Assembly (NCBI RefSeq): GCF_003019035.1
Contig: NZ_CP027447.1
From: Escherichia coli
GTDB taxonomy: Bacteria; Pseudomonadota; Gammaproteobacteria; Enterobacterales; Enterobacteriaceae
Strand: one strand, 5' to 3'
Length of the DNA stretch: 64,000 nt
Shown piece by piece: positions 8,132 to 27,638 of this stretch (position 1 is the first letter of the stretch; every line of letters begins with the position of its first letter). Position numbers and translations under genes: made by a program. The notes under the pieces are model-generated. The model was not told the origin of the DNA and did no database searches. It worked only from the letters and a program-made list of their open reading frames with translations.

Positions 8132-9631
8132 TTAACTCGCCGTTTCAGGCTTAAACACAATTTCCTGTTGTTCTTCATCTTCCTCGACGACTGGCGCAGT
8201 GCTGTGAATTTCAGCAACGCGTTTGCGCACACCAAACCAGCCTATAACCAGCAGAATACCGATAATCGGCAGCGCCGCGATAGTATAAGTCCCGTTCGGG
8301 TAATCGAACGCCATCAGCACCAGAACACTCAGTAAAAACAGTAATGTCAGCCAGGAAGTGAAGGGCGCGCCAGGCAGTTTAAAACTGACATCCGCTGCTT
8401 TGCCTTCTTTAATCGCTTTACGCAGGCGCATCTGGCACACGATGATAAACGCCCATGAAGCGATGATTCCCAGCGACGCGAAGTTCAACACAATCTCAAA
8501 TACGCGCGACGGCACCAGATAGTTGAGGAATACGCCGACGACATACACAACCAGTGTCGCCAGAATCCCGGCATACGGCACATGCTGACGACTCATTTTC
8601 GCCATAAAACTCGGTGCGGAACCGCCCATCGCCATTGAGCGCAGAATGCGTCCGGTGCAGTACAGACCTGAATTCAGGCTGGAGAGGGCAGCGGTCAGCA
8701 CCACAATGTTCATAATGCTGCCGATATATGGCACACCCAGTTTAGAGAAAAACGTCACGAACGGACTTTGCCCCGCCTGATACGCGCTCCACGGCAATAA
8801 CATAACCAGCAACACCACGGAGCCGACGTAAAACAGGCCAATACGCCAAATCACACTGTTAATGGCTTTAGGCACCATGGTCTGCGGATCTTTACATTCT
8901 CCGGCAGCTGTCCCCACCATTTCAATGGAGGCAAAAGCAAACACTACGCCCTGAATCAACACCAGCGCAGGCAGCAAACCGTGGGGGAAGAAGCCGCCAT
9001 TATCGGTGATTAAATGAAAGCCAGTGGTGTTGCCATCCAGCGGCTGACCACTACCGAGGAACACTGTACCCACGACCAAAAAGGTCACAATGGCGAGCAC
9101 TTTAATAAGCGCAAACCAGAACTCCATCTCCGCAAACCATTTCACACCGATCATATTCATGGTGCCAACGATGGTAAGTGCAGCGAGCGCAAAGACCCAC
9201 TGCGGCACGCCGCCAAACGCACCCCAGTAATGCATATACAGAGCGACGGCGGTAATATCAACAATCCCCGTCATCGCCCAGTTGATGAAGTACATCCAGC
9301 CAGCAACATAAGCGGCTTTCTCACCCAAAAACTCACGGGCATAAGAGACAAAACTGCCACTGGAAGGGCGGTGTAGCACCAGCTCACCCAATGCACGCAG
9401 AATAAAAAACGAAAACAAGCCACAAATTAAATAAACCAGTGCCAGTGCTGGACCCGCCATTTGCAGTCGGGCTCCTGCACCTAAAAACAAGCCGGTGCCA
9501 ATCGCGCCGCCAATGGCGATCATCTGTACCTGGCGATTGCCCATCGCTTTGTGATACCCCTCTTCGTGGGCATTAAGCCAGCGGCGTTTCGCGGCGTGTT
9601 GATCTGAAGTGTCGGTGTCGTGTTTACTCAT
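8132..9631 (-). CDS. ansP: L-asparagine permease (APC family), 499 aa
   Basis: Internal ATG (reverse complement of 9629..9631) with GGGAGAG ribosome-binding site; track ORF 8132..9682. Confidence 0.85.
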   Translation of the reverse strand: MSKHDTDTSDQHAAKRRWLNAHEEGYHKAMGNRQVQMIAIGGAIGTGLFLGAGARLQMAGPALALVYLICGLFSFFILRALGELVLHRPSSGSFVSYAREFLGEKAAYVAGWMYFINWAMTGIVDITAVALYMHYWGAFGGVPQWVFALAALTIVGTMNMIGVKWFAEMEFWFALIKVLAIVTFLVVGTVFLGSGQPLDGNTTGFHLITDNGGFFPHGLLPALVLIQGVVFAFASIEMVGTAAGECKDPQTMVPKAINSVIWRIGLFYVGSVVLLVMLLPWSAYQAGQSPFVTFFSKLGVPYIGSIMNIVVLTAALSSLNSGLYCTGRILRSMAMGGSAPSFMAKMSRQHVPYAGILATLVVYVVGVFLNYLVPSRVFEIVLNFASLGIIASWAFIIVCQMRLRKAIKEGKAADVSFKLPGAPFTSWLTLLFLLSVLVLMAFDYPNGTYTIAALPIIGILLVIGWFGVRKRVAEIHSTAPVVEEDEEQQEIVFKPETAS

Positions 9632-9897
9632 TGCTCTCCCTGATTGCTTTAATGAAAAAGTCATATAAGTTGCCATGAACAATGTTTATTCATCCTGGCG
9701 ATGATAGTTATCACCATTATTCTTTATGGGTATAAAACTATCGGCGCAGCATCCTACCCGTTATCGATAAACGATGCAAAACATCCCCTTACAATCCTGA
9801 AGGGGAATAATACAACTGACGAAAAAATGACAAATCCTTTTGCTGGTTAACCTGTGTACTGTCCTACACTTAATCTTTAAAAGATTGTGAGGGGCAT

Positions 9898-10515
9898 ATG
9901 ATTAAGGTGTATGGCGTACCCGGATGGGGCTCTACAATCAGTGAGCTGATGCTAACACTGGCTGATATTCCTTATCAGTTCTTTGATGTCAGTGGTTTTG
10001 ACCACGAGGGAACTTCACGCGAGTTATTGAAAACCCTGAACCCGTTGTGTCAGATTCCGACACTGGCGCTGGAAAATGACGAGATTATGACGGAGACAGC
10101 GGCGATTGCATTGATGGTTCTCGATCGTCGCCCGGACCTTGCGCCACCGGTTGGGCGCGCCGAACGTCAGCAGTTTCAACGGCTATTGGTCTGGCTGGTT
10201 GCTAATGTCTATCCAACATTCACTTTCGCCGATTACCCTGAGCGTTGGGCTCCTGACGCACCTGAACAGTTAAAGAAGAATGTTATTGAATATCGAAAAT
10301 CGCTTTATATCTGGTTGAATTCGCAGCTCACTGCTGAACCTTATGCGTTTGGTGAGCAACTAACGCTGGTGGACTGTTATCTTTGCACTATGCGCACATG
10401 GGGGCCTGGGCATGAATGGTTTCAGGATAATGCCACGAATATCAGTGCGATTGCTGATGCTGTATGTCAGTTACCGAAATTACAAGAAGTATTAAAAAGG
10501 AATGAAATTATTTGA
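9898..10515 (+). CDS. yncG: Glutathione S-transferase-like protein, 205 aa
   Basis: Track ORF; GST fold; synteny. Confidence 0.8.
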   Translation: MIKVYGVPGWGSTISELMLTLADIPYQFFDVSGFDHEGTSRELLKTLNPLCQIPTLALENDEIMTETAAIALMVLDRRPDLAPPVGRAERQQFQRLLVWLVANVYPTFTFADYPERWAPDAPEQLKKNVIEYRKSLYIWLNSQLTAEPYAFGEQLTLVDCYLCTMRTWGPGHEWFQDNATNISAIADAVCQLPKLQEVLKRNEII

Positions 10516-10590
10516 GTGGGATACCAGAAGATTATGTTATTTATTATTCAGTAACTTTATCCACAATGATGGGCGTAATTAATTAAATTC

Positions 10591-10803
10591 ATGTTATGTT
10601 TTTTAATTTATATCACTCTCCCTTTCATTCAGCTTGTCTATTTCATTTCCTCTGAAAAGAAACTAACTATTCACATTGTGCAGATGTTTCAGTTGTTATC
10701 ACAGGTATTCTATAATCTCAAAATGTTTTTAATGATGGATATGCTCGGAGTTGGAGATGCAATTAATATTAATACAAATAAAAATATCCGGCAGGTATGC
10801 TAA
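10591..10803 (+). CDS. yncH: Small hypothetical protein, 70 aa
   Basis: Track ORF in an AT-rich region; position matches K-12 yncH. Confidence 0.45.
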   Translation: MLCFLIYITLPFIQLVYFISSEKKLTIHIVQMFQLLSQVFYNLKMFLMMDMLGVGDAININTNKNIRQVC

Positions 10804-11623
10804 AAGGATAAATGGCGTTCTCTGTATTTATTCGCAATTATCTGTAGGACAAATATGGAGAGCTTGATGAGTCAGAGCTAAAACAGCAATTGATTAATAA
10901 ACATGTTGATTTATTCAAGAAAATGGATGTATTTTAAATATTGATTCTTAATATAACCTAATCAATAGATTATCACGTGAGAGCTGCACATTATTGGAGG
11001 GGCAGGGGAAAACACCATTTTGGGAACAATGCATCAGGTACTCTTACCACTGAAGCAAGATCATCCGGGCACCAGGTGGTGGTGCAGTGCTTTGGAAATG
11101 GTCCCCTCGGGGGAGTTGTCATTATTTTCTATGCTATTTGCTTATTATATTCATCAGGTGAATTTAATAAATTCCTAATTTGAAATATCCACTATTAAGC
11201 TAGTGTTTAACGACGTTAAGATGGCAATGTGCAGATCATGTTATCAGGGTGGGGCGGTAGCGTATATTCCTTATACAAACCATCATTCATTTCAATGATT
11301 GTTATTGAATTATTTATTGTTGTGAATAAAAAGACATTATGAATATTGGTTTGACTTTGCATATCAGGTTTTTTATTACTCGCTGTAATGTACGAGCCTG
11401 TCGTGAATAACGTCGAGAACCCATCCGTTGCGTTTGTGATTATTTTGTTGACTAAACAGACACCCGTTTCTCTGAAGTAAAATCCCAGACTAAATCATCA
11501 CATAACCATGACATTTTTCTGATATTCCCCGGTAACGCCAGATGTCGACTCGCTTATCTCATCCGCCCGACATGTTGTACATGCAATATGTGCGGATTAT
11601 TATTCATTTTCACGGAGGTTGCT

Positions 11624-13732
11624 ATGTCAACCGGATTACGTTTCACGCTGGAAGTGGACGGCCTGCCACCGGACGCGTTTGCGGTGGTTTCCTTTCATCT
11701 CACCCAGTCACTCTCTTCACTTTTTTCCCTTGACCTTTCTCTGGTCAGTCAGCAGTTTCTCTCCCTTGAATTTGCGCAGGTGCTGGACAAAATGGCCTAC
11801 CTGACGGTATGGCAGGGCGATGACGTACAGCGCCGGGTGAAAGGCGTGGTGACCTGGTTTGAACTCGGGGAGAACGACAAAAACCAGATGCTGTACAGCA
11901 TAAAGGTGCGCCCGCCGCTGTGGCGGGCAGGACTGCGTCAGAACTTCCGTATCTTCCAGAACGAGGACATCAGAAGCATCCTCGGCACCATACTGCAGGA
12001 AAATGACGTCACGGAGTGGAGTCCGCTGTTCAGCGAGCCGCATCCTTCCCGTGAGTTTTGTGTCCAGTACGGCGAAACCGATTACGATTTCCTGTGCCGG
12101 ATGGCGGCGGAGGAAGGCATCTTCTTTTATGAGGAGCACGCGCAAAAAAGTACCGACCAGAGCCTGGTCCTGTGCGACACCGTGCGTTATCTGCCGGAGT
12201 CCTTTGAGATCCCCTGGAATCCGAACACCCGTACCGAGGTGAGCACCCTATGCATCAGCCAGTTCCTCTACAGCGCACAAATCCGCCCATCTTCCGTGGT
12301 GACCAAAGACTACACCTTTAAACGACCCGGCTGGGCAGGGCGTTTTGATCAGGAAGGCCAGCACCAGGATTACCAGCGCACACAGTATGAAGTGTATGAC
12401 TACCCCGGACGTTTCAAGGGTGCCCACGGGCAGAACTTTGCCTGCTGGCAGATGGATGGCTGGCGAAACAACGCAGAAGTGGCGCGCGGAACAAGCCGTT
12501 CGCCGGAGATATGGCCGGGACGGCGAATTGCGCTGACGGGGCATCCGCAGGCGAACCTGAACCGGGAATGGCAGGTGGTGGCAAGTGAACTGCACGGCGA
12601 GCAGCCGCAGGCGGTGCCGGGACGCAGTGGTTCAGGTACCACGCTGAATAACCACTTTGCGGTAATACCGGCAGACAGAACATGGCGGCCACAGCCGTTG
12701 CTGAAACCGCTGGTGGACGGCCCGCAGAGCGCCGTCGTGACGGGACCGGCAGGAGAAGAAATCTTCTGTGATGAACATGGCCGCGTGCGGGTGAAATTTA
12801 ACTGGGACCGTTATAACCCGTCAAACCAGGACAGTTCATGCTGGATCCGTGTGGCACAGGCGTGGGCAGGCACCGGGTTTGGTAACCTGGCGATACCGCG
12901 TGTGGGTCAGGAGGTCATTGTGGACTTCCTCAACGGCGATCCGGACCAGCCGATTATTATGGGGCGCACCTACCACCAGGAAAACCGCACCCCCGGCAGC
13001 CTGCCGGGAACAAAGACGCAAATGACCATTCGTTCAAAAACCTATAAGGGCAGCGGGTTTAATGAACTGAAGTTTGACGATGCGACAGGGAAAGAACAGG
13101 TCTACATCCACGCGCAGAAGAACATGAACACCGAGGTGCTGAATAACCGCACCACGGATGTGATAAACAACCATGCTGAGACCATCGGCAACAATCAGGT
13201 GATTGCGGTTACCAACAATCAGATACAGACGGTGGGCGTTAACCAGATAGAGACGGTGGGCAGTAACCAGATCATTAAAGTGGGCTCTGTTCAGGTGGAA
13301 ACGATTGGACTTGTTCGTGCGCTGACTGTGGGCGTGGCGTATCAGACGACGGTAGGTGGCATTATGAACACCTCGGTGGCCCTGATGCAGTCCTCGCAGA
13401 TCGGTTTGCATAAATCGTTGATGGTCGGGCTGGGTTATGACGTCAAAGTCGGAAATAACGTTACCTTCACCGTTGGTAAAACGAAAAAGGATGATACCGG
13501 GCAGACCGCGATTTACTCCGCCGGTGAGCATCTGGAACTCTGCTGTGGTAAGGCAAGGCTGGTGCTGACTAAGGACGGACAAATTTTTCTCAACGGCACA
13601 AAAATTCATTTGCAGGGTAAGGAGCAGGTTAATGGTGACTCACTGTTGATTAACTGGAACTGTGCAGCCTCGAAATCCCCACCGAAGACCCCTGATGAAA
13701 AGCAGGATACGCCGGATATGAGAGAGTACTGA
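11624..13732 (+). CDS. vgrG: Type VI secretion spike protein VgrG, 702 aa
   Basis: ATG at 11624 with GGAGG ribosome-binding site; gp27/gp5-like VgrG sequence (…VDFLNGDPDQPIIMGRTYHQEN…); followed 66 nt later by an rhs start. Confidence 0.85.
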   Translation: MSTGLRFTLEVDGLPPDAFAVVSFHLTQSLSSLFSLDLSLVSQQFLSLEFAQVLDKMAYLTVWQGDDVQRRVKGVVTWFELGENDKNQMLYSIKVRPPLWRAGLRQNFRIFQNEDIRSILGTILQENDVTEWSPLFSEPHPSREFCVQYGETDYDFLCRMAAEEGIFFYEEHAQKSTDQSLVLCDTVRYLPESFEIPWNPNTRTEVSTLCISQFLYSAQIRPSSVVTKDYTFKRPGWAGRFDQEGQHQDYQRTQYEVYDYPGRFKGAHGQNFACWQMDGWRNNAEVARGTSRSPEIWPGRRIALTGHPQANLNREWQVVASELHGEQPQAVPGRSGSGTTLNNHFAVIPADRTWRPQPLLKPLVDGPQSAVVTGPAGEEIFCDEHGRVRVKFNWDRYNPSNQDSSCWIRVAQAWAGTGFGNLAIPRVGQEVIVDFLNGDPDQPIIMGRTYHQENRTPGSLPGTKTQMTIRSKTYKGSGFNELKFDDATGKEQVYIHAQKNMNTEVLNNRTTDVINNHAETIGNNQVIAVTNNQIQTVGVNQIETVGSNQIIKVGSVQVETIGLVRALTVGVAYQTTVGGIMNTSVALMQSSQIGLHKSLMVGLGYDVKVGNNVTFTVGKTKKDDTGQTAIYSAGEHLELCCGKARLVLTKDGQIFLNGTKIHLQGKEQVNGDSLLINWNCAASKSPPKTPDEKQDTPDMREY

Positions 13733-13798
13733 TCCCGTACCTGTTCAGTATTCAGTAACAAACAAGCATTAAAAATAAACAGAAGAAGGAATTGAATC

Positions 13799-13815
13799 AT
13801 GAGCGGAAAACCAGC
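13799..13815 (+). pseudogene. rhs start stub (ATG plus 14 nt) cut off by the H-repeat element
   Basis: atgagcggaaaaccagc matches the first 17 nt of the full-length rhs at 21550 (atgagcggaaaacccgc) at 15 of 17 positions; sits at the usual distance after the vgrG stop. Confidence 0.45.
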
Positions 13816-15106
13816 CAGGGAAAGATCATCAGAAGTACACTTTTTGTACTAAACAATTCGCATTTTATGTTTAAAAATTGAGATATTCCTCATTACCTGA
13901 AGCTGTTTTTTATTGCTTATACATGATCAAATACTCCTTACATAATTAAGGAGAACAAAATGGAACTTAAAAAATTGATGGAGCATATTTCTATTATCCC
14001 CGATTACAGACAAGCCTGGAAAGTGGAACATAAATTATCGGACATTCTACTGTTGACTATTTGTGCCGTTATTTCTGGTGCAGAAGGCTGGGAAGATATA
14101 GAGGATTTTGGGGAAACACATCTCGATTTTTTGAAGCAATATGGTGATTTTGAAAATGGTATTCCTGTTCACGATACCATTGCCAGAGTTGTATCCTGTA
14201 TCAGTCCTGCAAAATTTCACGAGTGCTTTATTAACTGGATGCGTGACTGCCATTCTTCAGATGATAAAGGCGTCATTGCAATTGATGGAAAAACGCTCCG
14301 GCACTCTTATGACAAGAGTCGCCGCAGGGGAGCGATTCATGTCATTAGTGCGTTCTCAACAATGCACAGTCTGGTCATCGGACAGATCAAGACGGATGAG
14401 AAATCCAATGAGATTACAGCTATCCCAGAACTTCTTAACATGCTGGATATTAAAGGAAAAATCATCACAACTGATGCGATGGGTTGCCAGAAAGATATTG
14501 CAGAGAAGATACAAAAACAGGGAGGTGATTATTTATTCGCTGTAAAAGGAAATCAGGGGCGGCTTAATAAAGCCTTTGAGGAAAAATTTCCACTGAAAGA
14601 ATTAAATAATCCAGAGCATGACAGTTACGCAATGAGTGAAAAGAGTCACGGCAGAGAAGAAATCCGTCTTCACATTGTTTGCGATGTCCCTGATGAACTT
14701 ATTGATTTCACGTTTGAATGGAAAGGTCTGAAGAAATTATGCGTGGCAGTCTCCTTTCGGTCAATAATAGCAGAACAAAAGAAAGAGCCAGAAATGACGG
14801 TCAGATATTATATCAGTTCTGCTGATTTAACCGCAGAGAAGTTCGCCACAGCAATCCGAAACCACTGGCACGTGGAGAATAAGCTGCACTGGCGTCTGGA
14901 CGTGGTAATGAATGAAGACGACTGCAAAATAAGAAGAGGAAACGCCGCAGAATTATTTTCAGGGATACGGCACATCGCTATTAATATTTTAACGAATGAT
15001 AAGGTATTCAAGGCAGGGTTAAGACGTAAGATGCGAAAAGCTGCCATGGACAGAAACTATCTCGCGTCAGTCCTTGCGGGGAGCGGGCTTTCGTAATCTT
15101 TCCCTG
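13816..15106 (+). mobile_element. H-repeat (ISAs1-family) insertion sequence, copy 1, about 1291 bp
   Basis: Terminal inverted repeats cagggaaagat… (13816) and …atctttccctg (ending 15106); encloses the transposase gene. Confidence 0.75.
13960..15096 (+). CDS. H-repeat-associated (ISAs1-family) transposase, 378 aa
   Basis: Track ORF; about 99% identical to the ORFs at 18738..19874 and 26492..27628. Confidence 0.85.
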
Positions 15107-16889
15107 GCTGCTGGAGTTCACGCGCGACCGCCTGCACCGGGAGACGGTGCGCAGCTTCGGCAGCATGGCAGGCAGTAATGCCGCATACGAACTGACCAGC
15201 ACATACACCCCCGCAGGCCAGTTACAGAGCCAGCACCTGAACAGCCTGGTATATGACCGTGACTACGGGTGGAGTGACAACGGCGACCTGGTGCGCATCA
15301 GCGGCCCGCGACAGACGCGGGAATACGGCTACAGCGCCACGGGCAGGCTGGAGAGTGTGCGCACCCTCGCACCGGACCTGGACATCCGCATCCCGTATGC
15401 CACGGACCCGGCGGGCAACCGGCTGCCGGACCCGGAGCTGCACCCGGACAGTACACTCACAGTGTGGCCGGATAACCGAATCACCGAAGACGCGCACTAC
15501 CTGTACCGTTACGATGAATACGGCAGGCTGACGGAGAAGACGGACCGCATCCCGGCGGGTGTGATACGGACGGACGACGAGCGGACCCACCACTACCGCT
15601 ACGACAGCCAGCACCGCCTGGTGTTCCACACGCGGATACAGCATGGCGAGCCACTGGTCGAGAGCCGCTACCTCTACGACCCGCTGGGACGGCGAATGGC
15701 AAAACGGGTCTGGCGGCGGGAGCGTGACCTGACGGGGTGGATGTCGCTGTCGCGTAAACCGGAGGAGACATGGTACGGGTGGGACGGCGACAGGCTGACG
15801 ACGGTGCAGACTGACACCACACGTATCCAGACGGTCTACCAGCCGGGGAGCTTCACGCCGCTCATCCGTATCGAGACAGAGAACGGCGAACGGGAGAAAA
15901 TGCAACGCCGCAGCCTGGCGGAGAAGTTACAGTCGGAAGGGAGTGAGGACGGTCACGGTGTGGTGTTCCCGGCTGAGCTGGTGAGGATGCTGGACAGGCT
16001 GGAGGAAGAAATCCGGGCAGACCGCGTGAGCAGTGAAAGCCGGGCGTGGCTTGCGCAGTGCGGGCTGACGGTGGAGCAACTGGCCAGACAGGTGGAGCCG
16101 GAATACACACCGGCGCGAAAAGTTCATTTTTACCACTGCGACCACCGGGGCCTGCCGCTGGCGCTCATCAGCGAAGACGGCAATACGGTGTGGAGCGGGG
16201 AGTATGATGAATGGGGCAACCAGCTTAATGAGGAGAACCCGCATCATGTGTATCAGCCATACCGCCTGCCGGGGCAGCAGTATGATGAGGAGTCGGGGCT
16301 GTACTATAACCGCAACCGGTACTATGATCCGTTGCAGGGGAGGTATATTACCCAGGATCCGATTGGGCCGGTGGGGGGGTGGAATCCCTATAGTTATGTG
16401 CTTATTAATCCAGCCCAGTTTATTGACCCAACAGGTTTAACTCAAGAGGACAATTGGACCTATGGTGAGGTAGGTAATAGCTGTGTTACGAGTCAACGCG
16501 ATTTTACTCCCCCGCCCGGACTTGCGGATATGAAAGCCAGCATTGGCGCTGCCTGCTCAAGAAACAATGCTTCCAGAAACTGCCACCCCGTAGATGGTAG
16601 TAATGCTTCTGCACCATCGGATAAAGCCGCATGGGAAAATATTCAAAATGCGACAAATGGTAAAGATTTATCTGGTGGTGGAAATATGTTTTGTGTAGGA
16701 AATGAGGACTGTGCGGTTGTTCATAGCTGTCGTGAAATAGTTAATGCTCGACACCCGGCAGGACGAGTGCGTGAACGTGTAACTCCGTTAACAACGTCAG
16801 GAACAGCAACGCTCAATGGAACAACAGTTTACTTTTATAATGATCCCCGGAATGGCAATTGTCCTGCTCACGAATATATTCCTCAATAA
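15107..16889 (+). pseudogene. N-terminally truncated rhs: 3' core (YD repeats) plus a distinct Cys-rich C-terminal tip
   Basis: Near-identical at nucleotide level to 23994..25260 of the full-length rhs; track ORF 15147..16889; tip after the DPxGL-type core boundary (…IDPTGL) is unrelated to the full-length tip. Confidence 0.75.
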
Positions 16890-16939
16890 AGAAAAGTGGC
16901 CAGACTAAGCTCTAGCCACATTTTTTGGAGATCCTTTTC

Positions 16940-17563
16940 ATGAAAAGGTTTTTTATAACATGTTGCGTTATGACATTATTTTTATTTGTTAAATGTAAAG
17001 CAGCGTGTGTAACTTCCTTATATGAGGTTCAGCAATCGCTCTTTACATACATTTATTTGATTAGACAAGACCCTGTTCATTTTGATTCATATATTAAGAA
17101 TGTGCATAACGAATTAAAAATATTCCATGATATTGATAAAGCAATGAATATAGCCTCAGATATGGTCAAAATTATTGATATAAAGACCCGTTTATCATTT
17201 AATAATGATTTATATATATTACAAGGGGAACGACAGTATGCAATAGTTAAGAGTGAAGGGGAAAGTAGTCAATTAAAATCATCAGCATTTATCATATCTA
17301 ATTACCCACTATTTAAAAACAAAGTTCTGTTAATTTTATCCGCTACTAGTCCCGTTCAGTTGGTTATATTGTCTTTTGATCAATGTCTTAATGTGGAGGT
17401 GTTATTTGATTCAATGTCTCCAGTTTTCGCTAAGTATAGAGAAGATATTAGTGCAACATTACCATTATGGAAGGTTATTTTGACAAAAAATGATATAGAA
17501 TTATATGAGTACCATAGAACAAATCCATACTCACTTAACAAATTATTGAGCATGTCAAAATAA
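16940..17563 (+). CDS. Putative cognate immunity protein with signal peptide, about 207 aa
   Basis: ATG at 16940 with GGAG ribosome-binding site; AT-rich; directly downstream of the rhs tip; N-terminal hydrophobic signal-like segment. Confidence 0.55.
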   Translation: MKRFFITCCVMTLFLFVKCKAACVTSLYEVQQSLFTYIYLIRQDPVHFDSYIKNVHNELKIFHDIDKAMNIASDMVKIIDIKTRLSFNNDLYILQGERQYAIVKSEGESSQLKSSAFIISNYPLFKNKVLLILSATSPVQLVILSFDQCLNVEVLFDSMSPVFAKYREDISATLPLWKVILTKNDIELYEYHRTNPYSLNKLLSMSK

Positions 17564-17743
17564 CGGTCAAGTATTCAACGTTGTAATATTATTCCTTTTG
17601 CTGAGTGTCTCGAACGGCTAAAGTTGACGTAAAATGCCACGTTTTGTGGGCAAACCGAATCGGTTAAAAAGCATGGTCCGGGAAAAGCTTAACATCAGCG
17701 CTATCGGTGCCAAATGTGCAGCAGGCCTTTCCAGCCTGATTAC

Positions 17744-18004
17744 CAGGGCAGGGCGGGATCGTGAATATTGTGATGCATATCACATGAACTCCTGGTTTTA
17801 ACTTATTATTTCGGTTAAAATTTAACCACTGAAATCATTAGGATTCGAGCAAAGGGACGGCATATGGATATTCAAAATTTACTGGATTATATTTCTATAA
17901 TTCCTGATTATCGTCAGCAAGGGAAAATAAGGCATAAATTGTCAGATATTTTATTGCTCACTATATGTGCTATTATTGCCGGTTCTGATGAATGGGAGGA
18001 TATT
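17744..18004 (+). mobile_element. Remnant A of an ISAs1-family element (left end plus 5' transposase), interrupted by remnant B
   Basis: IR-like end cagggcagggcgggatcgtg at 17744; transposase N-terminus [21 protein letters not shown]… from 17864. Confidence 0.5.
17864..18004 (+). pseudogene. ISAs1-family transposase 5' fragment (about 46 codons)
   Basis: Homologous to the N-terminus of the intact H-repeat transposases; ends where the next element's end begins. Confidence 0.5.
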
Positions 18005-18593
18005 CAGGGCAAGATCATGAAAATCGTGATGTAAATCACAATTTTCAACCTGGCTTTAACTCCTTCAGGAGATTAAAATTTAACCTATGGAATAACTAAA
18101 AAGATAAAAAAGGACGCCAGATGAGTATTCAAAGTTTGCTTGATTATATTTCAGTGTTCCCTGATATACGACAACAAGGAAAGGTTAAACATAAATTATC
18201 TGATATTTTGTTTCTCACCGTATGTGCAGTAATTGCAGGTGCCGATGAGTGGCAGGAAATTGAAGATTTTGGACATGAAAGACTGGAATGGCTAAAGAAA
18301 TATGGTGATTTTGATAATGGCATTCCGGTCGATGACACCATTGCACGCGTTGTGAGTAACATTGACAGTTTGGCCTTTGAAAAGATGTTTATTGAATGGA
18401 TGCAGGAGTGCCATGAAATCACTGATGGTGAAATTATAGCAATAGATGGAAAGACCATAAGAGGCTCCTTTGATAAGGGAAAAAGGAAAGGAGCAATCCA
18501 TATGGTGAGTGCATTCTCGACTGAAAATGGTGTTGTACTGGGGCAGGTGAAAACGGAAGCCAAAAGTAATGAGATTACAGCCATTCCAGAGTT
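18005..18593 (+). mobile_element. Remnant B of an ISAs1-family element, interrupted by intact copy 2
   Basis: IR-like end cagggcaagatcatgaaaatcg at 18005; transposase 5' ORF from 18121; homology stops at 18593 where copy 2 IR-L begins. Confidence 0.55.
18121..18593 (+). pseudogene. ISAs1-family transposase N-terminal fragment (about 158 codons, divergent paralog)
   Basis: Track ORF 18121..18630 reads through into the next element's end; roughly 60-70% identical by eye to the intact H-repeat transposase. Confidence 0.6.
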
Positions 18594-19884
18594 CAGGGAA
18601 AGATCATCAGAAGTACACTTTTTGTACTAAACAATTCGCATTTTATGTTTAAAAATTGAGATATTCCTCATTACCTGAAGCTGTTTTTTATTGCTTATAC
18701 ATGATCAAATACTCCTTACATAATTAAGGAGAACAAAATGGAACTTAAAAAATTGATGGAACATATTTCTATTATCCCCGATTACAGACAAGCCTGGAAA
18801 GTGGAACATAAATTATCGGATATTCTACTGTTGACTATTTGTGCCGTTATTTCGGGTGCAGAAGGCTGGGAAGATATAGAGGATTTTGGGGAAACACATC
18901 TCGATTTTTTGAAGCAATATGGTGATTTTGATAATGGTATTCCTGTTCACGATACCATTGCCAGAGTTGTATCCTGTATCAGTCCTGCAAAATTTCACGA
19001 GTGCTTTATTAACTGGATGCGTGACTGCCATTCTTCAGATGATAAAGACGTCATCGCAATTGATGGAAAAACACTCCGGCATTCTTATGACAAGAGTCGC
19101 CGCAGGGGAGCGATTCATGTCATTAGTGCGTTCTCAACAATGCACAGTCTGGTCATCGGACAGATCAGGACGGATGAGAAATCCAATGAGATCACAGCTA
19201 TCCCTGAACTTCTTAACATGCTGGATATTAAAGGAAAAATTATCACAACTGATGCAATGGGTTGCCAGAAAGATATTGCAGAGAAGATACAAAAACAGGG
19301 CGGTGATTATTTATTCGCTGTAAAAGGAAATCAGGGTCGGCTAAATAAAGCCTTTGAGGAAAAATTCCCACTGAAAGAATTAAATAATCCAGAACATGAC
19401 AGTTACGCAATGAGTGAAAAGAGTCACGGCAGAGAAGAAATCCGTCTTCACATTGTTTGCGATGTCCCTGATGAACTTATTGATTTCACGTTTGAATGGA
19501 AAGGTCTGAAGAAATTATGCGTGGCAGTCTCCTTTCGGTCAATAATAGCAGAACAAAAGAAAGAGCCAGAAATGACGGTCAGATATTATATCAGTTCTGC
19601 TGATTTAACCGCAGAGAAGTTCGCCACAGCAATCCGAAACCACTGGCACGTGGAGAATAAGCTGCACTGGCGTCTGGACGTGGTAATGAATGAAGACGAC
19701 TGCAAAATAAGAAGAGGAAACGCCGCAGAATTATTTTCAGGGATACGGCACATCGCTATTAATATTTTGACGAATGATAAGGTATTCAAGGCAGGGTTAA
19801 GACGTAAGATGCGAAAAGCTGCCATGGACAGAAACTATCTCGCGTCAGTCCTTGCGGGGAGCGGGCTTTCGTAATCTTGCCCTG
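18594..19884 (+). mobile_element. H-repeat (ISAs1-family) insertion sequence, copy 2, about 1291 bp
   Basis: IR-L cagggaaagatcatcag at 18594; IR-R …atcttgccctg ending 19884; same length as copy 1. Confidence 0.75.
18738..19874 (+). CDS. H-repeat-associated (ISAs1-family) transposase, 378 aa
   Basis: Track ORF; near-identical to copies 1 and 3. Confidence 0.85.
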
Positions 19885-19896
19885 CTTTGTAATGGT

Positions 19897-20079
19897 ATGG
19901 CAGGAGGATATGAATTTGCAGTAAGTAAATTTGGTCAGTCGGCCTATGATGCCGCACAGGAAAAAGCATTAAATAACTATATGGAATTTGAAATGTTAGA
20001 TTTATTACAAAGCATGGGAGAGAATGTCAATCCAGATGAATATAAGCAGGCGCATGATAGAGTTGTTAATCCAAATTGA
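19897..20079 (+). CDS. Small hypothetical protein, about 60 aa, possibly a toxin-tip remnant
   Basis: ATG at 19897 just after copy 2 IR-R; track ORF 19852..20079 starts inside the insertion sequence; ends 15 nt before the next gene's ATG. Confidence 0.3.
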   Translation: MAGGYEFAVSKFGQSAYDAAQEKALNNYMEFEMLDLLQSMGENVNPDEYKQAHDRVVNPN

Positions 20080-20093
20080 ATGCAGAGGGGAGT

Positions 20094-20657
20094 ATGTTAT
20101 TAAAACTGATAATGTTATTTTCAATATTTTTTATCCCGTTTTTGGCAGGTTGCAGTATGTTTGATGATGTTTTTGAGAAAAACTACTCATTGAGTTCTGT
20201 CGCCAGTTTTCCAGATGACGTTGATGAATTAAAAGAAATATGGTTTTTTTGTGAAAGATGTTTAAGTGATGAGCAGTGCGAAAATCATGACATTAAACAA
20301 TGTAGAGATGTAACTATTCCCGGTAGAGATGAAGCATTAAGTAAAGCTGTAGGCAGAGCCAATGTCGAAGCTGTTTACTTTCTTGTTGATGTGGCAAAAA
20401 CTGATGTCAATGGTATTACAGGTAAATATAAGGAAACACCATTAATTATTGCTGCATATTATGGAACTCAAGCACATCAGGATATAGCTGAATTTTTGCT
20501 ATTGCATGGGGCAGATATTAATAAAACTTACCCAGCCATTGGGCGAAATCCTCTAGGTGTCGCCAGATGGAAGCATAATGTCGATTTCGTTAATTTTCTA
20601 CTGAAGCATGGTGCTGAACCAGCAGTACATATGGGGTCGATTGAGAATAAAGAGTGA
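20094..20657 (+). CDS. Ankyrin-repeat lipoprotein, about 187 aa, immunity-like
   Basis: ATG at 20094 with GAGGGGA ribosome-binding site; lipobox FLAGC; ankyrin repeats (…TPLIIAAYYG…LLLHGADIN…). Confidence 0.6.
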   Translation: MLLKLIMLFSIFFIPFLAGCSMFDDVFEKNYSLSSVASFPDDVDELKEIWFFCERCLSDEQCENHDIKQCRDVTIPGRDEALSKAVGRANVEAVYFLVDVAKTDVNGITGKYKETPLIIAAYYGTQAHQDIAEFLLLHGADINKTYPAIGRNPLGVARWKHNVDFVNFLLKHGAEPAVHMGSIENKE

Positions 20658-21100
20658 GATTTAACAAAAATGCAATTCATGCTCTCGCCTTGGGTGACGG
20701 TATTGATACTGCTTTTAAGTGTTCAGGAAAAATGGAAAGTGGTAAACCCTTAAAATCTTCGGGCAAATGGGATTACTCTGTTGGTGGGACAAATGGTGCC
20801 TTTCTTTATCTTAAAGACTATTCAAATATTTTGACGGCTGGCCACACAGGAAATCTGGCAGTTACTTTTCTTGGAAGTTACAATGCTCAATATTCAATAA
20901 ACGGAAACTCTCTGGATGTAGTTGTAACAAATTCTTCAACGATACAATCAGCGACACATCCCCCAATCCTGGAGTATACAAAATGGTGGCAGGATAATAT
21001 TGGTAATCCTTTGGATAGAAAATTTCAAAAAGGTCCCACGTCCCCAAAAACACAAACCATAAATTTACACTTTGATTTGTCATGTGCGTGCAAAAAATGA
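20654..21100 (+). CDS. Hypothetical protein, 148 aa, no signal peptide
   Basis: Track ORF with GTG start overlapping the upstream stop (GTGA) and stop overlapping the downstream ATG; no recognisable domain. Confidence 0.35.
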   Translation: MRFNKNAIHALALGDGIDTAFKCSGKMESGKPLKSSGKWDYSVGGTNGAFLYLKDYSNILTAGHTGNLAVTFLGSYNAQYSINGNSLDVVVTNSSTIQSATHPPILEYTKWWQDNIGNPLDRKFQKGPTSPKTQTINLHFDLSCACKK

Positions 21101-21549: not shown

Positions 21550-24500
21550 ATGAGCGGAAAACCCGCGGCACGCCAGGGTGATGCCACGCTGAAAGGCGGT
21601 CCGATAGTCCAGGGGTCAGCGGGGGTGCTGATAGGCGCGCCCACCGGCGTGGCGTGCTCGGTGTGTCCGGGCGGGATGACTTCGGGCAACCCGGTAAATC
21701 CGCTGCTGGGGGCGAAGGTGCTGCCCGGCGAGACGGACCTTGCCCTGCCCGGCCCGCTGCCGTTCATTCTCTCCCGCACCTACAGCAGCTACCGGACGAG
21801 GACGCCTGCCCCGGTGGGCGTTTTCGGCCCCGGCTGGAAAGCGCCTTCGGATATCCGCTTACAGCTACGTGATGACGCACTGATACTCAACGACAACGGC
21901 GGGCGGAGCATTCACTTTGAGCCGCTGCTGCCGGGGGAGGCGGTGTACAGCCGCAGCGAGTCAATGTGGCTGGTGCGCGGTGGTAAGGCAGCGCAGCCGG
22001 ACGGCCACACGCTGGCGCGACTGTGGGGGGCGCTGCCGCCGGATATCCGGTTAAGCCCGCATCTTTACCTGGCGACCAACAGCGCACAGGGGCCGTGGTG
22101 GATACTCGGCTGGTCAGAGCGGGTGCCGGGTACTGAGGACGTACTGCCAGCGCCGCTGCCGCCGTACCGGGTGCTTACCGGGCTGGCGGACCGCTTCGGG
22201 CAGACGCTGACGTACCGGCGTGAGGCCGCCGGTGACCTGGCCGGGGAAATCACCGGCGTGACGGACGGTGCCGGGCGGAAGTTCCGTCTGGTGCTGACCA
22301 CGCAGGCGCAGCGTGCGGAAGAGGCCCGCACCTCTTCGCTATCTTCTTCTGACCGTTCCCGCCCTCTCTCAGCCTCAGCGTTCCCCGACACACTGCCCGG
22401 TACGGAATACGGCCCCGACAGGGGCATCCGTCTTTCGGCGGTGTGGCTGATGCACGACCCGGCATACCCGGAAAGCCTGCCCGGTGCGCCACTGGCGCGG
22501 TACACGTATACGGAAGCCGGTGAACTGCTGGCGGTATATGACCGCAGCAATACGCAGGTGCGCGCTTTCACGTATGACGCGCAGCACCCGGGCCGGATGG
22601 TGGCGCACCGTTACGCGGGAAGGCCGGAGATGCGCTACCGCTACGACGATACGGGGCGGGTGGTGGAGCAACTGAACCCGGCAGGGTTAAGCTACCGCTA
22701 TCTTTATGAGCAGGACCGCATCACCATCACGGACAGCCTGAACCGGCGAGAGGTGCTGCATACAGAAGGCGGGGCCGGGCTGAAGCGGGTGGTGAAAAAA
22801 GAACTGGCGGACGGCAGCGTCACGCACAGCGGGTATGACGCGGCAGGAAGGCTCACGGCACAGACGGACGCGGCGGGACGGCAGACAGAGTACGGTCTGA
22901 ATGTGGTGTCAGGCGATATCACGGACATCACCACGCCGGACGGGCGGGAGACGAAATTTTACTATAACGACGGGAACCAGGTGACGGCAGTGGTGTCCCC
23001 GGACGGGCTGGAGAGCCGCCGGGCGTATGATGAGCGGGACAGGCTGGTAACGGAGACATCGCGCAGTGGGGACGTCATCCGGTATGCTTATGATAATCCG
23101 CACAGTGAATTACCGGCCACGACAACAGATGCGACGGGCAGCACCCGGCAGATGACCTGGAGCCGCTACGGGCAGTTGCTGGCGTTCACCGACTGCTCGG
23201 GCTACCAGACCCGCTATGAATACGACCGCTTCGGCCAGATGACGGCGGTCCACCGCGAGGAAGGCATCAGCCTTTACCGCCGCTATGACAACCGTGGCCG
23301 GTTAACCTCGGTGAAAGACGCACAGGCCCGTGAAACGCAGTATGAGTACAACGCCGCAGGCGACCTGACTGCCGTTATCACCCCGGATGGCAACCGGAGT
23401 GAGACACAGTACGATGGGTGGGGAAAGGCCATCAGCACCACGCAGGGCGGGCTGACGCGCAGTATGGAGTACGATGCTGCCGGACGTATCACCACGCTGA
23501 CTAACGAGAACGGCAGCCACAGCGACTTTAGTTACGATGCGCTGGACCGCCTGATACAGCAGGGCGGCTTTGACGGGCGGACGCAACGTTATCATTATGA
23601 CCTGACCGGAAAACTCACGCAGAGTGAAGATGAGGGGCTTGTCATCCTCTGGTACTACGATGAATCGGACCGTATTACTCACCGCACGGTAAACGGTGAA
23701 CCGGCAGAACAGTGGCGGTATGACGGCCACGGCTGGCTGAGAGAAATCAGCCACCTGAGCGAAGGCCACCGTGTTGCCGTCCACTATGGCTATGATAATA
23801 AAGGCCGCCTGACCAGTGAGCGCCAGACGGTGCATCACCCGGAGACGGGAGAGCTGCTCTGGCAGCATGAGACCGGACATGCGTACAACGAACAGGGGCT
23901 GGCAAACCGCGTCACGCCGGACAGTCTGCCGCCGGTGGAGTGGCTGACCTATGGTAGCGGTTATCTGGCAGGCATGAAGCTGGGCGGGACGCCGCTGCTG
24001 GAGTTCACGCGCGACCGCCTGCACCGTGAGACGGTGCGCAGCTTCGGCAGCATGGCAGGCAGTAATGCCGCATACGAACTGACCAGCACATACACCCCTG
24101 CAGGCCAGTTACAGAGTCAGCACCTGAACAGCCTGGTGTATGACCGTGACTACGGGTGGAATGACAACGGAGACCTGGTGCGCATCAGCGGCCCGCGACA
24201 GACGCGGGAATACGGCTACAGCGCCACGGGCAGGCTGGAGAGTGTGCGCACCCTCGCACCGGACCTGGACATCCGCATCCCGTATGCCACGGACCCGGCG
24301 GGCAACCGGCTGCCGGACCCGGAGCTGCACCCGGACAGTACACTCACAGTGTGGCCGGATAACCGCATCGCGGAGGATGCGCACTATGTCTACCGCCACG
24401 ATGAATACGGCAGGCTGACGGAGAAGACGGACCGCATCCCGGCGGGTGTGATACGGACGGACGACGAGCGGACCCACCACTACCACTACGACAGCCAGCA

Positions 24501-25803
24501 CCGCCTGGTGTTCTACACGCGGATACAGCATGGCGAGCCACTGGTCGAGAGCCGCTACGTCTACGACCCGCAGGGACGGCGAATGGCGAAACGGGTATGG
24601 CGGCGGGAGCGTGACCTGACGGGGTGGATGTCGCTGTCGCGTAAACCGGAGGTGACGTGGTACGGCTGGGACGGCGACCACCTGACGACGGTGCAGACCG
24701 ACAGCACACGTATCCAGACGGTATACGAGCCGGGAAGCTTCACACCGCTCATCCGCATCGAAACAGACAACGGCGAGCGGGAGAAAACGCAGCGGCGGAG
24801 CCTGGCGGAGAAGCTCCAGCAGGAAGGGAGCGAGGACGGACACGGTGTGGTGTTCCCGGCTGAACTGGTGAGGATGCTGGACAGGCTGGAGGAAGAAATC
24901 CGGGCAGACCGCGTGAGCGGTGAAAGCCGGACGTGGCTTGCACAGTGCGGGCTGGCGGTGGAGCAACTGGAAAAACAGGTGGAGCCGGAATACACGCCGG
25001 AACGCACACTGCATCTTTACCACTGCGACCACCGGGGACTGCCGCTGGCGCTTATCAGCGAAGACGGCAATACGGTGTGGAGCGCGGAGTATGATGAATG
25101 GGGAAACCTGCTTAATGAGGAGAACCCGCATCATGTGTATCAGTCATACCGTCTGCCGGGGCAGCAGCATGATGAGGAGTCGGGGCTGTATTATAACCGG
25201 AACCGGTACTATGACCCGCTACAGGGGAGGTATATCACCCAGGATCCAATCGGGCTAAGAGGTGAATGGAATCTGTATAAATATCCATTAAACCCTGTTC
25301 GGTTTATAGATTCTTTGGGTTTAAAATTCCATGTTAACGGTGATCCAAGTGATTTTAATCAGGCTGTTGAGTATTTAAAACAAGATTCACGAATGAAAGA
25401 AGCTATAGATTTTTTATCAAGCTCTGAAGAAACCATAAAGATAGAGTATATTGATGAAACCGACGTTAGATTTGACCCGGATAAAATGACTATATATTGG
25501 AATGGTAAGGCGGCTTTATTTTGTTCAACTGATTTAAAATCGAAATCACAATCACCTGCATTAGGTTTGGGGCATGAGTTTGCTCATGCGCACTTATATC
25601 TTATTGATAAGGATGGTTATATGGGGCTTGTGAGACGTGCGGATGAACAATATAAAAATAAAGAAGAGGCGAGAGTTATCACTTTAATTGAACAGCATGC
25701 GGCGAAAACTTTAGGTGAGTGTACCAGAACAGCATATAATGGAGTGTATTATCGTGTGAATACACCAACGCAGACGGCAACAATAAATGGCACGCCAGAA
25801 TAG
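21550..25803 (+). CDS. Full-length Rhs polymorphic toxin, 1417 aa: PAAR-like N-terminus, YD-repeat shell, HExxH-containing C-terminal tip
   Basis: Track ORF with AAGGAG ribosome-binding site; N-terminus [11 protein letters not shown]…; repeated YD motifs; core boundary …YITQDPIGL…IDSLGL; tip contains [10 protein letters not shown]. Confidence 0.9.
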
Positions 25804-26322: not shown

Positions 26323-27638
26323 CAGGGAAAGATCACGTAACGCTGCTCAGGGAAAGATCACGTAACGCTGCTTTTTTGTACTAAACAATCCGCATTTTAT
26401 GTTTAAAAATTGAGATATTCCTCATTACCTAAAGCTGTTTTTTATTGCTTATACATGATCAAATACTCCTTACATAATTAAGGAGAACAAAATGGAACTT
26501 AAAAAATTGATGGAACATATTTCTATTATCCCCGATTACAGACAAGCCTGGAAAGTGGAACATAAATTATCGGATATTCTACTGTTGACTATTTGTGCCG
26601 TTATTTCGGGTGCAGAAGGCTGGGAAGATATAGAGGATTTTGGGGAAACACATCTCGATTTTTTGAAGCAATATGGTGATTTTGATAATGGTATTCCTGT
26701 TCACGATACCATTGCCAGAGTTGTATCCTGTATCAGTCCTGCAAAATTTCACGAGTGCTTTATTAACTGGATGCGTGACTGCCATTCTTCAGATGATAAA
26801 GACGTCATCGCAATTGATGGAAAAACACTCCGGCATTCTTATGACAAGAGTCGCCGCAGGGGAGCGATTCATGTCATTAGTGCGTTCTCAACAATGCACA
26901 GTCTGGTCATCGGACAGATCAGGACGGATGAGAAATCCAATGAGATCACAGCTATCCCTGAACTTCTTAACATGCTGGATATTAAAGGAAAAATTATCAC
27001 AACTGATGCAATGGGTTGCCAGAAAGATATTGCAGAGAAGATACAAAAACAGGGCGGTGATTATTTATTCGCTGTAAAAGGAAACCAGGGGCGGCTAAAT
27101 AAAGCCTTCGAGGAAAAATTTCCGCTGAAAGAATTAAATAATCCAGAGCATGACAGTTACGCAATGAGTGAAAAGAGTCACGGCAGAGAAGAAATCCGTC
27201 TTCACATTTTTTGCGATGTCCCTGATGAACTTATTGATTTCACGTTTGAATGGAAAGGTCTGAAGAAATTATGCGTGGCAGTCTCCTTTCGGTCAATAAT
27301 AGCAGAACAAAAGAAAGAGCCAGAAATGACGGTCAGATATTATATCAGTTCTGCTGATTTAACCGCAGAGAAGTTCGCCACAGCAATCCGAAACCACTGG
27401 CACGTGGAGAATAAGCTGCACTGGCGTCTGGACGTGGTAATGAATGAAGACGACTGCAAAATAAGAAGAGGAAATGCAGCAGAATTATTTTCAGGGATAC
27501 GGCACATCGCTATTAATATTTTGACGAATGATAAGGTATTCAAGGCAGGGTTAAGACGTAAGATGCGAAAAGCAGCCATGGACAGAAACTATCTGGCGTC
27601 AGTCCTTGCGGGGAGCGGGCTTTCGTAATCTTTCCCTG
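26323..27638 (+). mobile_element. H-repeat (ISAs1-family) insertion sequence, copy 3, with a 25-bp tandem duplication at its left end
   Basis: cagggaaagatcacgtaacgctgct occurs twice in tandem (26323..26372); IR-R …atctttccctg ends at 27638. Confidence 0.7.
26492..27628 (+). CDS. H-repeat-associated (ISAs1-family) transposase, 378 aa
   Basis: Track ORF; near-identical to copies 1 and 2. Confidence 0.85.

Follow-up and report, generated by a model that had tools for sequence, protein, structure and literature searches.

What became of the rhs gene that lies behind vgrG at this locus, and does its interrupted state conceal a small Rhs protein that could be released? The window, a 64,000-nucleotide stretch of Escherichia coli DNA analysed as a whole, covers the E. 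coli RhsE locus (yncH–vgrG–rhs…yddH). The first-pass annotation had described in it the first nucleotides of an rhs gene, an H-repeat element immediately behind them and a resumption of rhs far inside the core, and had proposed that precise loss of the element would join the two ends into a vgrG-linked mini-Rhs with a Cys-rich tip.

Results

The left boundary: vgrG, spacer and rhs stub

The left side of the locus comprises three features:

11624..13732, plus strand: intact vgrG (tssI), TIGR03361 at 623.8 bits; VgrG is annotated at the same locus in ST648 and in strains 7/2 and 2824
13733..13798, plus strand: vgrG–rhs spacer of 66 nt with the ribosome-binding site AAGGA; 65/66 nt as in the spacer before the intact rhs of strain 7/2
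13799..13815, plus strand: rhs stub, the start codon and 14 nt (MSGKPA); 17/17 against the vgrG-linked rhs of strain 7/2

For vgrG, a mechanical open reading frame runs from 11588, and orthologues are annotated as 2109 nt. The stub (ATGAGCGGAAAACCAGC) had been read as the beginning of rhs 66 nt after vgrG, with the reservation that so short a match might be fortuitous. Base-by-base comparison gave 16/17 identities with the start of the window's own full-length copy at 21550, and placed the end of the rhs homology exactly at 13815/13816. Upstream of the stub, 98 of 99 nt (the spacer and the end of vgrG) match strain 7/2, and the uninterrupted junction of vgrG, 66 nt and rhs is present in 2640 of 5426 complete E. 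coli genomes. The homology to intact loci is therefore continuous from vgrG to nt 17 of rhs, which rules out a chance match. The gene is cut inside its literal P-A-A-R codons, and the reading frame of the stub runs on into the element as a 17-codon ORF (MSGKPARERSSEVHFLY, then a stop). The same left junction, the stub followed by a 100% identical ISEc1, was found in 86 of the 5426 genomes and on two metagenome contigs, one of the ST648 type described below and the other ending inside the IS; these two contigs yielded no new right flank.

The ISEc1 copies of the window

The H-repeat had been delimited by a left inverted repeat from 13816 and a right one ending at 15106, and between these limits we found a complete ISEc1, the first of three copies:

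13816..15106, plus strand: complete ISEc1 (H-repeat, ISAs1 family), copy 1, 1291 bp, NF033564 at 417 bits; 100% identical to the ST648 copy, which is annotated as ISEc1 family transposase
within copy 1: left inverted repeat (IRL) 13816-13826, transposase ORF 13960-15096 (378 aa), right inverted repeat (IRR) 15096-15106
18594..19884, plus strand: ISEc1 copy 2, interrupting an ISEc26-like element; 98.45% to copy 1, without target-site duplication
26348..27638, plus strand: ISEc1-like copy 3 with a variant left end; 97.9% over 26373-27638

The transposase of copy 1 matches the ISAs1 model NF033564 along its full length (1-314; cut-off 70 bits), and the copy is 97.3% identical to ydcC of K-12. Both of its ends start with CAGGGAAAGAT and pair over 11 perfect bp, or 13 with one mismatch, in keeping with the terminal inverted repeats of the ISAs1 family, which start with CAGGG and measure 14-22 bp (PMC11946415), though slightly under that range. 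Self-BLAST aligned copy 1 with copy 2 over all 1291 nt and with 26373-27638 of copy 3, at the identities given above. All three lie in the same orientation, and one to three such copies were seen at the locus in each other genome examined. At the left end of copy 3, 25 nt are repeated in tandem at 26323-26347.

The missing direct repeat at copy 1 is meaningful, because insertions of ISAs1-family elements normally produce one of about 10 bp (PMC11946415). The flanks, …AAACCAGC on the left and GCTGCTGG… on the right, hold no direct repeat, as had been noted from the outset, and none was seen at any ISEc1 copy examined at the RhsE locus. This leaves the family membership of copy 1 unaffected, but it is not the context of a simple insertion.

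The right boundary, the extent of the deletion and its frame

Behind copy 1 the sequence resumes as rhs, for which the full-length paralogue of the window served as the breakpoint yardstick:

15107..16889, plus strand: 5'-truncated rhs, core from nt 2445 and Cys-rich tip; 93.7% to 23994-25255, NF041261 positions 820-1261
16970..17563, plus strand: putative cognate immunity gene, found after the same tip in the intact loci of 2824 and YZMc3-1
21550..25803, plus strand: full-length rhs paralogue, 1417 aa; NF041261 positions 1-1261, 2717 bits

By self-BLAST, 15107-16368 matches 23994-25255 without gaps over 1262 nt, and the boundary is exact, with a mismatch to the rhs copy at 15106 and matches from 15107 onward in the base-by-base comparison. 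Position 23994 lies at offset 2444 from the ATG, that is, rhs nt 2445, the third position of codon 815. The missing interval is consequently rhs nt 18-2444, or 2427 bp. Exact alignment of both boundaries thus upholds the resumption point of the first-pass annotation as well as its reading of the deletion as in frame (17 nt before, a third codon position after, 809 whole codons lost); an error of 1-2 nt in the breakpoints had been allowed for, and they are now fixed to the nucleotide. A virtual fusion of stub and fragment stays in frame and meets no stop before the natural one at 16889. The in-frame state is most likely a coincidence; the prior for an in-frame deletion is one in three. Outside the window, the right junction was found among the 5426 genomes only in strain SCU-301, which was assembled independently.

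The 3' fragment, its tip and the downstream ORF

The core of the fragment ends with the PxxxxDPxGL motif at 16410-16439, and a Cys-rich C-terminal tip of 149 aa occupies 16440-16886, just before the stop codon; in frame, the earliest candidate starts are GTG at 15147 and ATG at 15165. The NF041261 score of the fragment, 937 bits over positions 820-1261 only, falls short of the cut-off of 2000, and Pfam recognises only RHS and RHS_repeat in the fragment (RHS domain PF03527, E = 1.6e-17). DUF6531 and YD repeats lie in residues 1-815 of the full-length paralogue, and the deleted part of the vgrG-linked gene covers DUF6531 and most YD repeats. Judged by its sequence, the fragment is a piece of an RHS core member and not a functional member, and the RefSeq annotation of SCU-301 lists it as an RHS pseudogene, incomplete, with its N-terminus missing. 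The paralogue begins with a start region of its own, ends in a different tip and is followed by a small ORF at 25816-26265.

Neither the Cys-rich tip nor the ORF after it had matches in Pfam, NCBIfam, PADLOC or PDB sequences. The mechanical reading frame of the latter runs from 16925, and its orthologues are annotated as a 594-nt hypothetical protein; we regard it as a putative immunity gene from its position. The fragment has the make-up of an orphan module (a 5'-truncated core, a tip and a downstream ORF), and the same pair of tip and ORF occurs in intact loci. Scanning 13500-17800 for promoters and terminators gave background levels, with 10 promoter sites against 7.1 ± 2.5 in shuffles.

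Intact loci and the ST648 allele

Comparison with strains that carry an intact vgrG-linked rhs, as had been advised, confirmed the stub, the tip and the downstream gene. Strains 7/2, 2824 and YZMc3-1 agree with the window in vgrG, in the 66-nt spacer and in the first 17 nt of rhs, but their rhs is uninterrupted and 4206-4236 nt long, whereas the window has ISEc1 in place of nt 18-2444. In 2824 and YZMc3-1 the resemblance extends to the Cys-rich tip, the 594-nt ORF and an IS1 remnant downstream, and the first 198 nt of the fragment are 99.5% identical to the intact gene of 2824. These loci identify the 3' remainder as the vgrG-linked gene's own end, with its tip and its usual downstream gene.

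The ST648-type allele, present in about 80 complete genomes, has an identical left junction and an ISEc1 100% identical to that of the window, but to the right of it stand the last ~190 nt of a different toxin tip and a 453-nt ORF, with no rhs core. At least 79 (79-82) of the 86 left-junction genomes have this right flank, and about 3-6 were assigned to neither type. No intact parent of the ST648 right flank was found in the 5426 genomes, where it occurs in remnant form only. Between the window and ST648 there are 2 mismatches over window positions 8171-15106, a shared block that ends at the IS, and outside it the two differ by 1-10% upstream and by 1.5-5% downstream. The two ISEc1 copies are identical over 1291 nt and share alleles at positions 168, 455 and 1176 that are missing from all six other aligned copies; at position 1286, 6 nt from the end, copy 1 and ST648 have T and copy 2 of the window has G.

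Discussion

Origin of the deletion

It is likely that the locus owes its structure to an internal deletion associated with the IS, which left a dead gene and an orphan module. The first-pass annotation had preferred a deletion next to the element or recombination between two copies to simple insertion, and this preference is sustained by the lack of a direct repeat and by the two right flanks of the same IS. That the right flank differs while the ISEc1 copy is identical is a sign of deletions associated with the end of the element. ISEc1 would have been inserted first, at rhs nt 17/18, and deletions starting from its right end would then have taken away the DNA beyond it. The lineage of the window and SCU-301 would have lost 2427 bp, as far as core nt 2445, and the ST648 lineage a larger stretch, which reached into a toxin tip and left its last ~190 nt. 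A synthetic junction between the right end of the IS and rhs nt 18, as expected of a simple-insertion ancestor, was not found in the 5426 genomes, and a gapped-pattern scan of metagenome contigs found no such junction with a 0-12-nt duplication. As no undeleted ancestor came to light, both the sequence of events and the site of the first insertion are inferred only; likewise, the deletions of ST648 and the window are not demonstrably nested in one ancestor, because an intact parent of the ST648 flank is absent from the 5426 genomes. Two further candidates were rejected: the right end of an ISAs1 element at rhs nt 39/40 in strain D2 as the other half of the same insertion, the positions being 22 nt apart, and microhomology through the IR-like CAGGGAGAT at rhs nt 24-32 as a guide of the junction, rhs nt 18-23 being absent from the window.

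Within an IS-associated deletion, the process would most plausibly be intramolecular transposition, that is, an adjacent deletion by an element whose family is reported to transpose by copying, and we consider this evenly balanced between right and wrong. Recombination with a short-lived identical sister copy would give the same product. A related but less probable course, already named in the first-pass annotation and in our judgement worth roughly one part in four of our belief, is that two ISEc1 copies in the same orientation, at rhs nt 17 and nt 2444, underwent RecA-dependent recombination with loss of the interval, one copy remaining between unrelated flanks. The locus is full of same-orientation copies, and the product, which lacks a target-site duplication, would be indistinguishable from that of adjacent deletion; but this course requires two insertions in one gene besides the recombination event, and no ISEc1 at nt 2444/2445 with rhs on its left occurs in the 5426 genomes. 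The complete identity with the ST648 copy further demands either that the partner was an identical sister in both lineages or that the crossover fell in the last few nt. When recombination between copies was sought as a chimeric IS, no SNP mosaic appeared in copy 1, and its identity along the whole length, with alleles of its own shared with ST648, means that it is not a chimera of sequenced diverged copies.

The abrupt end of the block shared with ST648 at the IS, with greater divergence on either side, could also suggest that vgrG, stub and ISEc1 were imported from an ST648-like donor by homologous recombination, the right crossover lying in a resident ISEc1 behind which an orphan rhs fragment, from nt 2445 onward, was already present, so that the apparent deletion would be a replacement of the recipient's main rhs. 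ISEc1 right ends next to 5'-truncated rhs are indeed common at this locus (at nt 40, ~2360, 3552 and 3592). We nevertheless find such an import improbable, as ISEc1 agrees with the donor type to within 6 nt of its right end and the junction of the IS right end with rhs nt 2445 does not occur with another left flank in the 5426 genomes. Moreover, the fragment is not a resident orphan, because in 2824 and YZMc3-1 it is the main vgrG-linked gene that has this tip, this immunity gene and this IS1 remnant. That the stub is fortuitous or the region misassembled across its repeats is hardly credible: 17 nt are few, and the region holds three IS copies and two rhs cores, but the homology to intact loci runs without interruption up to nt 17, and both junctions recur in independent assemblies (the 86 genomes, SCU-301 and the two metagenome contigs). 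Returning to IS-associated deletion, we put forward, tentatively and with more doubt than belief, that ISEc1 has been recently active at RhsE, with one insertion at nt 17 and at least two independent right-end deletions, and that ISEc1 ends recurrently truncate the 5' ends of rhs and vgrG into orphan modules, selection on immunity limiting the deletions.

Prospects of a mini-Rhs and fate of the module

The arithmetic of the proposed in-frame fusion stands, but the release of a mini-Rhs by precise loss of the element does not follow from it. Excision would switch on a vgrG-linked Rhs of 599 residues with the Cys-rich tip, and the frame open from the stub to the natural stop, together with the native ribosome-binding site and start codon kept at the stub, speak for it. 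A search with the synthetic excision junction, however, found it contiguous in none of the 5426 complete E. coli genomes; the 11 best partial matches were two-piece alignments spanning 920-1334 nt, which represent other, IS-less internal deletions. No direct repeats flank the element that could promote precise excision, and a frame preserved by chance is no surprise. The product would also be deprived of the N-terminal region, of DUF6531 and of most YD repeats, with 819 of 1261 core positions missing, and the cage is reportedly required for secretion, a finding said to come from Donato et al. in 2020. The N-terminal region of Rhs is needed for mounting on VgrG (PMC8636562). We thus regard a latent mini-Rhs as very improbable.

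A VgrG-loading effector has an N-terminal PAAR-type region and a complete shell, and here only 6 N-terminal codons are left, split off by the IS. As a T6SS effector the vgrG-linked rhs is dead: 65% of its shell is gone, and no N-terminal region is linked to its start. What remains at the 3' end survives as an orphan toxin/immunity module, probably kept by selection on the immunity gene. Internal toxin expression, as shown for orphan Rhs of Salmonella (PMC7043789), may possibly be under selection as well, by analogy with those orphans. The locus is a case of ordinary Rhs decay, which public genomes already annotate as a pseudogene, and not a latent mini-toxin. For annotation, one vgrG-linked effector gene has left two remains, the 17-nt stub and the 1.8-kb fragment; the RhsE vgrG of this strain has lost the effector next to it, although 7.8 kb downstream there is a full-length rhs, and the Cys-rich tip now forms an orphan module with its partner ORF. 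There is no new kind of system here, and the result carries little weight beyond annotation, but the locus could serve in asking if the H-repeat remains mobile.

Comparison with known systems

Orphan rhs tips and their origin by C-terminal displacement have been described before (Jackson et al. 2009, PMC2935791; for Salmonella, PMC7043789). Like classical orphans, the fragment has a 5'-truncated core, the PxxxxDPxGL motif, a variable tip and a small ORF after it, and over ~1.26 kb its core is homologous to that of a full-length rhs in the same orientation. Classical orphans, however, are found downstream of the main gene, where displacement accounts for them, whereas the fragment of the window is a decapitated main gene, directly behind vgrG and 4.7 kb upstream of the full-length copy, and thus not where the displacement model would place it.

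The locus also resembles adjacent deletions mediated by IS elements: the IS is intact, the deletion extends from one of its ends, no target-site duplication is present, and of the two flanks one is common to several lineages and the other variable, in this case the same IS and a constant left flank in 86 genomes with two right-flank types among the matches listed. The mechanism has not been demonstrated for ISEc1, and in E. coli no transposition of the H-repeat has been seen in experiments (PMC3032704). With a single IS copy whose one flank is constant and whose other flank exists in two forms, the locus is nevertheless a tidy natural case of decay associated with an IS end.

Among the closest known systems is also RhsE of K-12 (rhsE pseudogene, ydcD, yncI and ydcC; b1455-b1461), which occupies the same locus between yncH and pptA/yddH and has the same rhs core family, likewise 5'-truncated, the same H-repeat and the same ISEc26-like yncI. 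Its deletion junction, unlike that of the window, is without an IS, and the deletion, which starts shortly before vgrG, reaches core nt ~2197, so that vgrG is gone and the last 1549 bp of the core are left, whereas the window has kept vgrG and the first 17 nt of rhs, with ISEc1 at the deletion and the core present from nt 2445.

Results

Self-comparison of the window and base-by-base alignment bore out all the coordinates of the first-pass annotation, and the features concerned are listed here.

Features of the RhsE locus in the window
13799-13815, stub, the rhs start directly behind vgrG
13816-15106, ISEc1 copy 1
15107-16889, 5'-truncated rhs (the fragment) up to its stop
18594-19884, ISEc1 copy 2
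21550-25803, full-length rhs paralogue
26348-27638, ISEc1 copy 3

Copy 1 is complete (1291 bp), ends in perfect 11-bp inverted repeats (CAGGGAAAGAT) and is 98.45% identical to copy 2 and 97.9% to the third copy (aligned at 26373-27638). The stub agrees with the start of the paralogue at 16/17 nt, and behind the element 15107-16368 aligns without gaps to 23994-25255 (93.7% identity). Since rhs resumes at the third base of codon 815 (position 23994), the vgrG-linked rhs lacks nt 18-2444, that is, 2427 bp or exactly 809 codons; the deletion is in frame, as had been claimed, and stub and fragment joined on paper leave the frame open as far as the stop at 16889. The flanks of copy 1, AAACCAGC on the left and GCTGCTGG on the right, have no direct repeat in common, in agreement with the reported absence of a target-site duplication.

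The 378-aa ORF of copy 1 scores 417 bits against the ISAs1 transposase model (cut-off 70 bits), and the copy shares 97.3% identity with K-12 ydcC, an annotated H repeat-associated transposase, and 100% with ISEc1-annotated copies of ST648 genomes. The neighbors in matching genomes, ydcT...ansP-yncG-yncH upstream and the yddH-nhoA-yddE-narZ operon downstream, show the window to be the RhsE locus (K-12 b1455-b1461).

A chance match of the stub was ruled out, as strain 7/2 has the same vgrG and 66-nt gap followed by an intact rhs of 4206 nt, is the same as the window at 98/99 nt ahead of the rhs ATG, and matches the stub at 17/17 nt, the match stopping exactly at 13815; moreover, the uninterrupted vgrG-rhs junction, reconstructed as the 400 nt of the window that end at 13815 followed by 400 nt of rhs starting at nt 18, stands unbroken in 2640/5426 complete E. 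coli genomes. Only ten of the complete genomes contain all of 15107-17700. In strains 2824 and YZMc3-1, the RhsE locus has an intact vgrG-linked rhs that ends in the fragment sequence, with the same 594-nt ORF and IS1 remnant behind it, and the first 198 nt 3' of copy 1 are 99.5% identical to the rhs of strain 2824, against 93.7% to the window's downstream paralogue. These loci show that the fragment is the vgrG-linked gene's own 3' end, and bear out the proposal of a single rhs whose internal deletion the IS marks.

The arrangement had been attributed to an IS-adjacent deletion or to recombination between copies, and this reading holds. ISAs1-family insertions produce a direct repeat of ~10 bp (PMC11946415), which is missing here; copy 1 is therefore no simple insertion. 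The left junction plus the entire IS is shared by 86 complete genomes, of which 79-82 form an ST648 group whose sequence past the IS right end is wholly different from the window's and comprises the final ~190 nt of another toxin tip and a 453-nt ORF, while the window's right junction recurs only in strain SCU-301, with a locus near-identical to the window's in an error-rich assembly. The IS of the window and that of ST648 are identical at 1291/1291 positions and share alleles at 168, 455, and 1176 found in 0/6 other aligned copies; position 1286 is T in both, but G in window copy 2. One and the same IS copy thus adjoins two different right flanks, and it is no mosaic of the diverged copies found today. 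Such a pattern is what deletions that start from one fixed end of an IS give, and this is the most likely mechanism; recombination with an identical sister copy since lost is also possible, as the same product would result. The undeleted ancestor (the IS with the rest of rhs) was not found in 5426 complete genomes or in metagenome contigs, so the order of events is one that we infer. Window and ST648 differ by 2 mismatches over the ~7 kb of 8171-15106 (part of ansP, yncG, yncH, vgrG, stub, and IS), whereas outside it the divergence is 1-10% on the upstream side and 1.5-5% on the downstream side. The stretch resembles a recombination block that ends on the right at the IS and, since the near-identity stops there, recombinational import may be part of the history.

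The ISEc1 copies inspected within the RhsE locus of nine genomes (the window's three copies and those of eight other loci, L002-L009) showed no target-site duplication; therefore, either all of them lie at rearrangement junctions or ISEc1 does not make the repeat of its family. Six distinct right ends, a small sample, adjoin, in sense orientation, an rhs or vgrG truncated at its 5' end, with resumption at rhs nt 40, ~2360, 2445, 3552, and 3592 and at vgrG nt 1540; among the complete left ends tested, also few, only one adjoins rhs coding sequence.

ISEc1 right ends at truncated genes, and nested elements
Window, 15106, right end
L004, 12894, right end
L005, 12944 and 20404, right ends
L008, 6250, right end
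L009, 5250, right end
Window, within 17700-19884, unnamed ISAs1-family element, cut by the ISEc26-like element
Window, left end near 18005 and transposase fragment 18121-18593, ISEc26-like element, cut by complete ISEc1 copy 2

In the region 17700-19884, truncated left parts of ISAs1-family elements are stacked, and the part of the ISEc26-like element kept ahead of ydcC (yncI) is 613 bp longer in K-12. The left end of copy 3 departs from those of copies 1 and 2 at positions 14-25, and its 25 nt (CAGGGAAAGATCACGTAACGCTGCT) stand twice in tandem at 26323-26372, in SCU-301 as well. The rhs 5' end (window 21573-21581; rhs nt 24-32 in L003) reads CAGGGTGAT / CAGGGAGAT, resembling the ISEc1 terminal repeat, and two independent ISAs1 junctions (nt 17 in the window; nt 39/40 in strain D2) lie ≤25 nt from it. 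Between copy 2 and the full-length rhs (20076-21480) are three small ORFs, one annotated as ankyrin-repeat in SCU-301, which may be immunity genes left from lost modules. In SCU-301 (L001 25616-25625), the downstream full-length rhs is ~970 bp shorter than in the window (22941-23913), which may be a real second deletion or, given the many frameshifts of that assembly, an error. The His/Cys-rich tip tail and 453-nt ORF of ST648 (L002 17808-18700) are present in 82 genomes, in all cases as no more than a remnant next to this IS, and an intact parent of the tip in 0 of the 5426 complete genomes.

Discussion

The first-pass annotation also envisaged that precise loss of the IS would fuse stub and fragment into a mini-Rhs. 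Its frame arithmetic stands, but no other evidence is in its favor: the fusion junction is contiguous in 0/5426 complete E. coli genomes (the nearest matches being unrelated IS-less internal deletions), no repeats for precise excision flank copy 1, and the product would be without parts that Rhs proteins need for loading and toxin enclosure. A deletion is in frame by chance one time in three. The first-pass reading as a whole is correct on origin; on potential it is mistaken, or at the least lacks support.

Against the RHS core model (cut-off 2000 bits), the fragment covers positions 820-1261 of 1261 and falls below the cut-off (937 bits), while the paralogue covers 1-1261 and exceeds it (2717 bits). 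The 809 lost codons hold DUF6531 and most YD repeats, and the IS breakpoint is within the literal P-A-A-R codons of the rhs N-terminus. In the Rhs effectors studied, mounting on VgrG needs the N-terminal region (PMC8636562); with this region and most of the core lost, the vgrG-adjacent rhs is dead as an effector, and its RefSeq label in SCU-301 is that of an incomplete RHS pseudogene with the N-terminus missing. The fragment retains the core-end PxxxxDPxGL-type motif, a 149-aa Cys-rich tip (no match in Pfam, NCBIfam, PADLOC, or PDB sequences), and a partner ORF, and now amounts to a putative orphan toxin/immunity module. Salmonella orphan modules have internal promoters that drive their expression, and they act as toxin-antitoxin pairs (PMC7043789); a promoter scan around the fragment gave counts at background level. 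In the ST648 allele, the deletion destroyed the toxin and spared the downstream ORF, a pattern that would fit selection on immunity.

H-repeats tied to Rhs elements, defective RhsE cores, and displaced tips have long been described (PMC2935791, PMC3032704). The K-12 rhsE is likewise a deletion allele of this locus, although its deletion starts immediately upstream of vgrG and reaches core nt ~2197, with the final 1549 bp of core left, and its junction has no IS. Other variants include vgrG'-'rhs fusions in an ETEC isolate, internal deletions of rhs in other genomes, and an ISAs1 element ahead of a 5'-truncated vgrG in another genome or at rhs nt 40 in strain D2. The observation is confirmed, and it is an ordinary one: the window's allele is one more RhsE decay variant, present and annotated already in public genomes.
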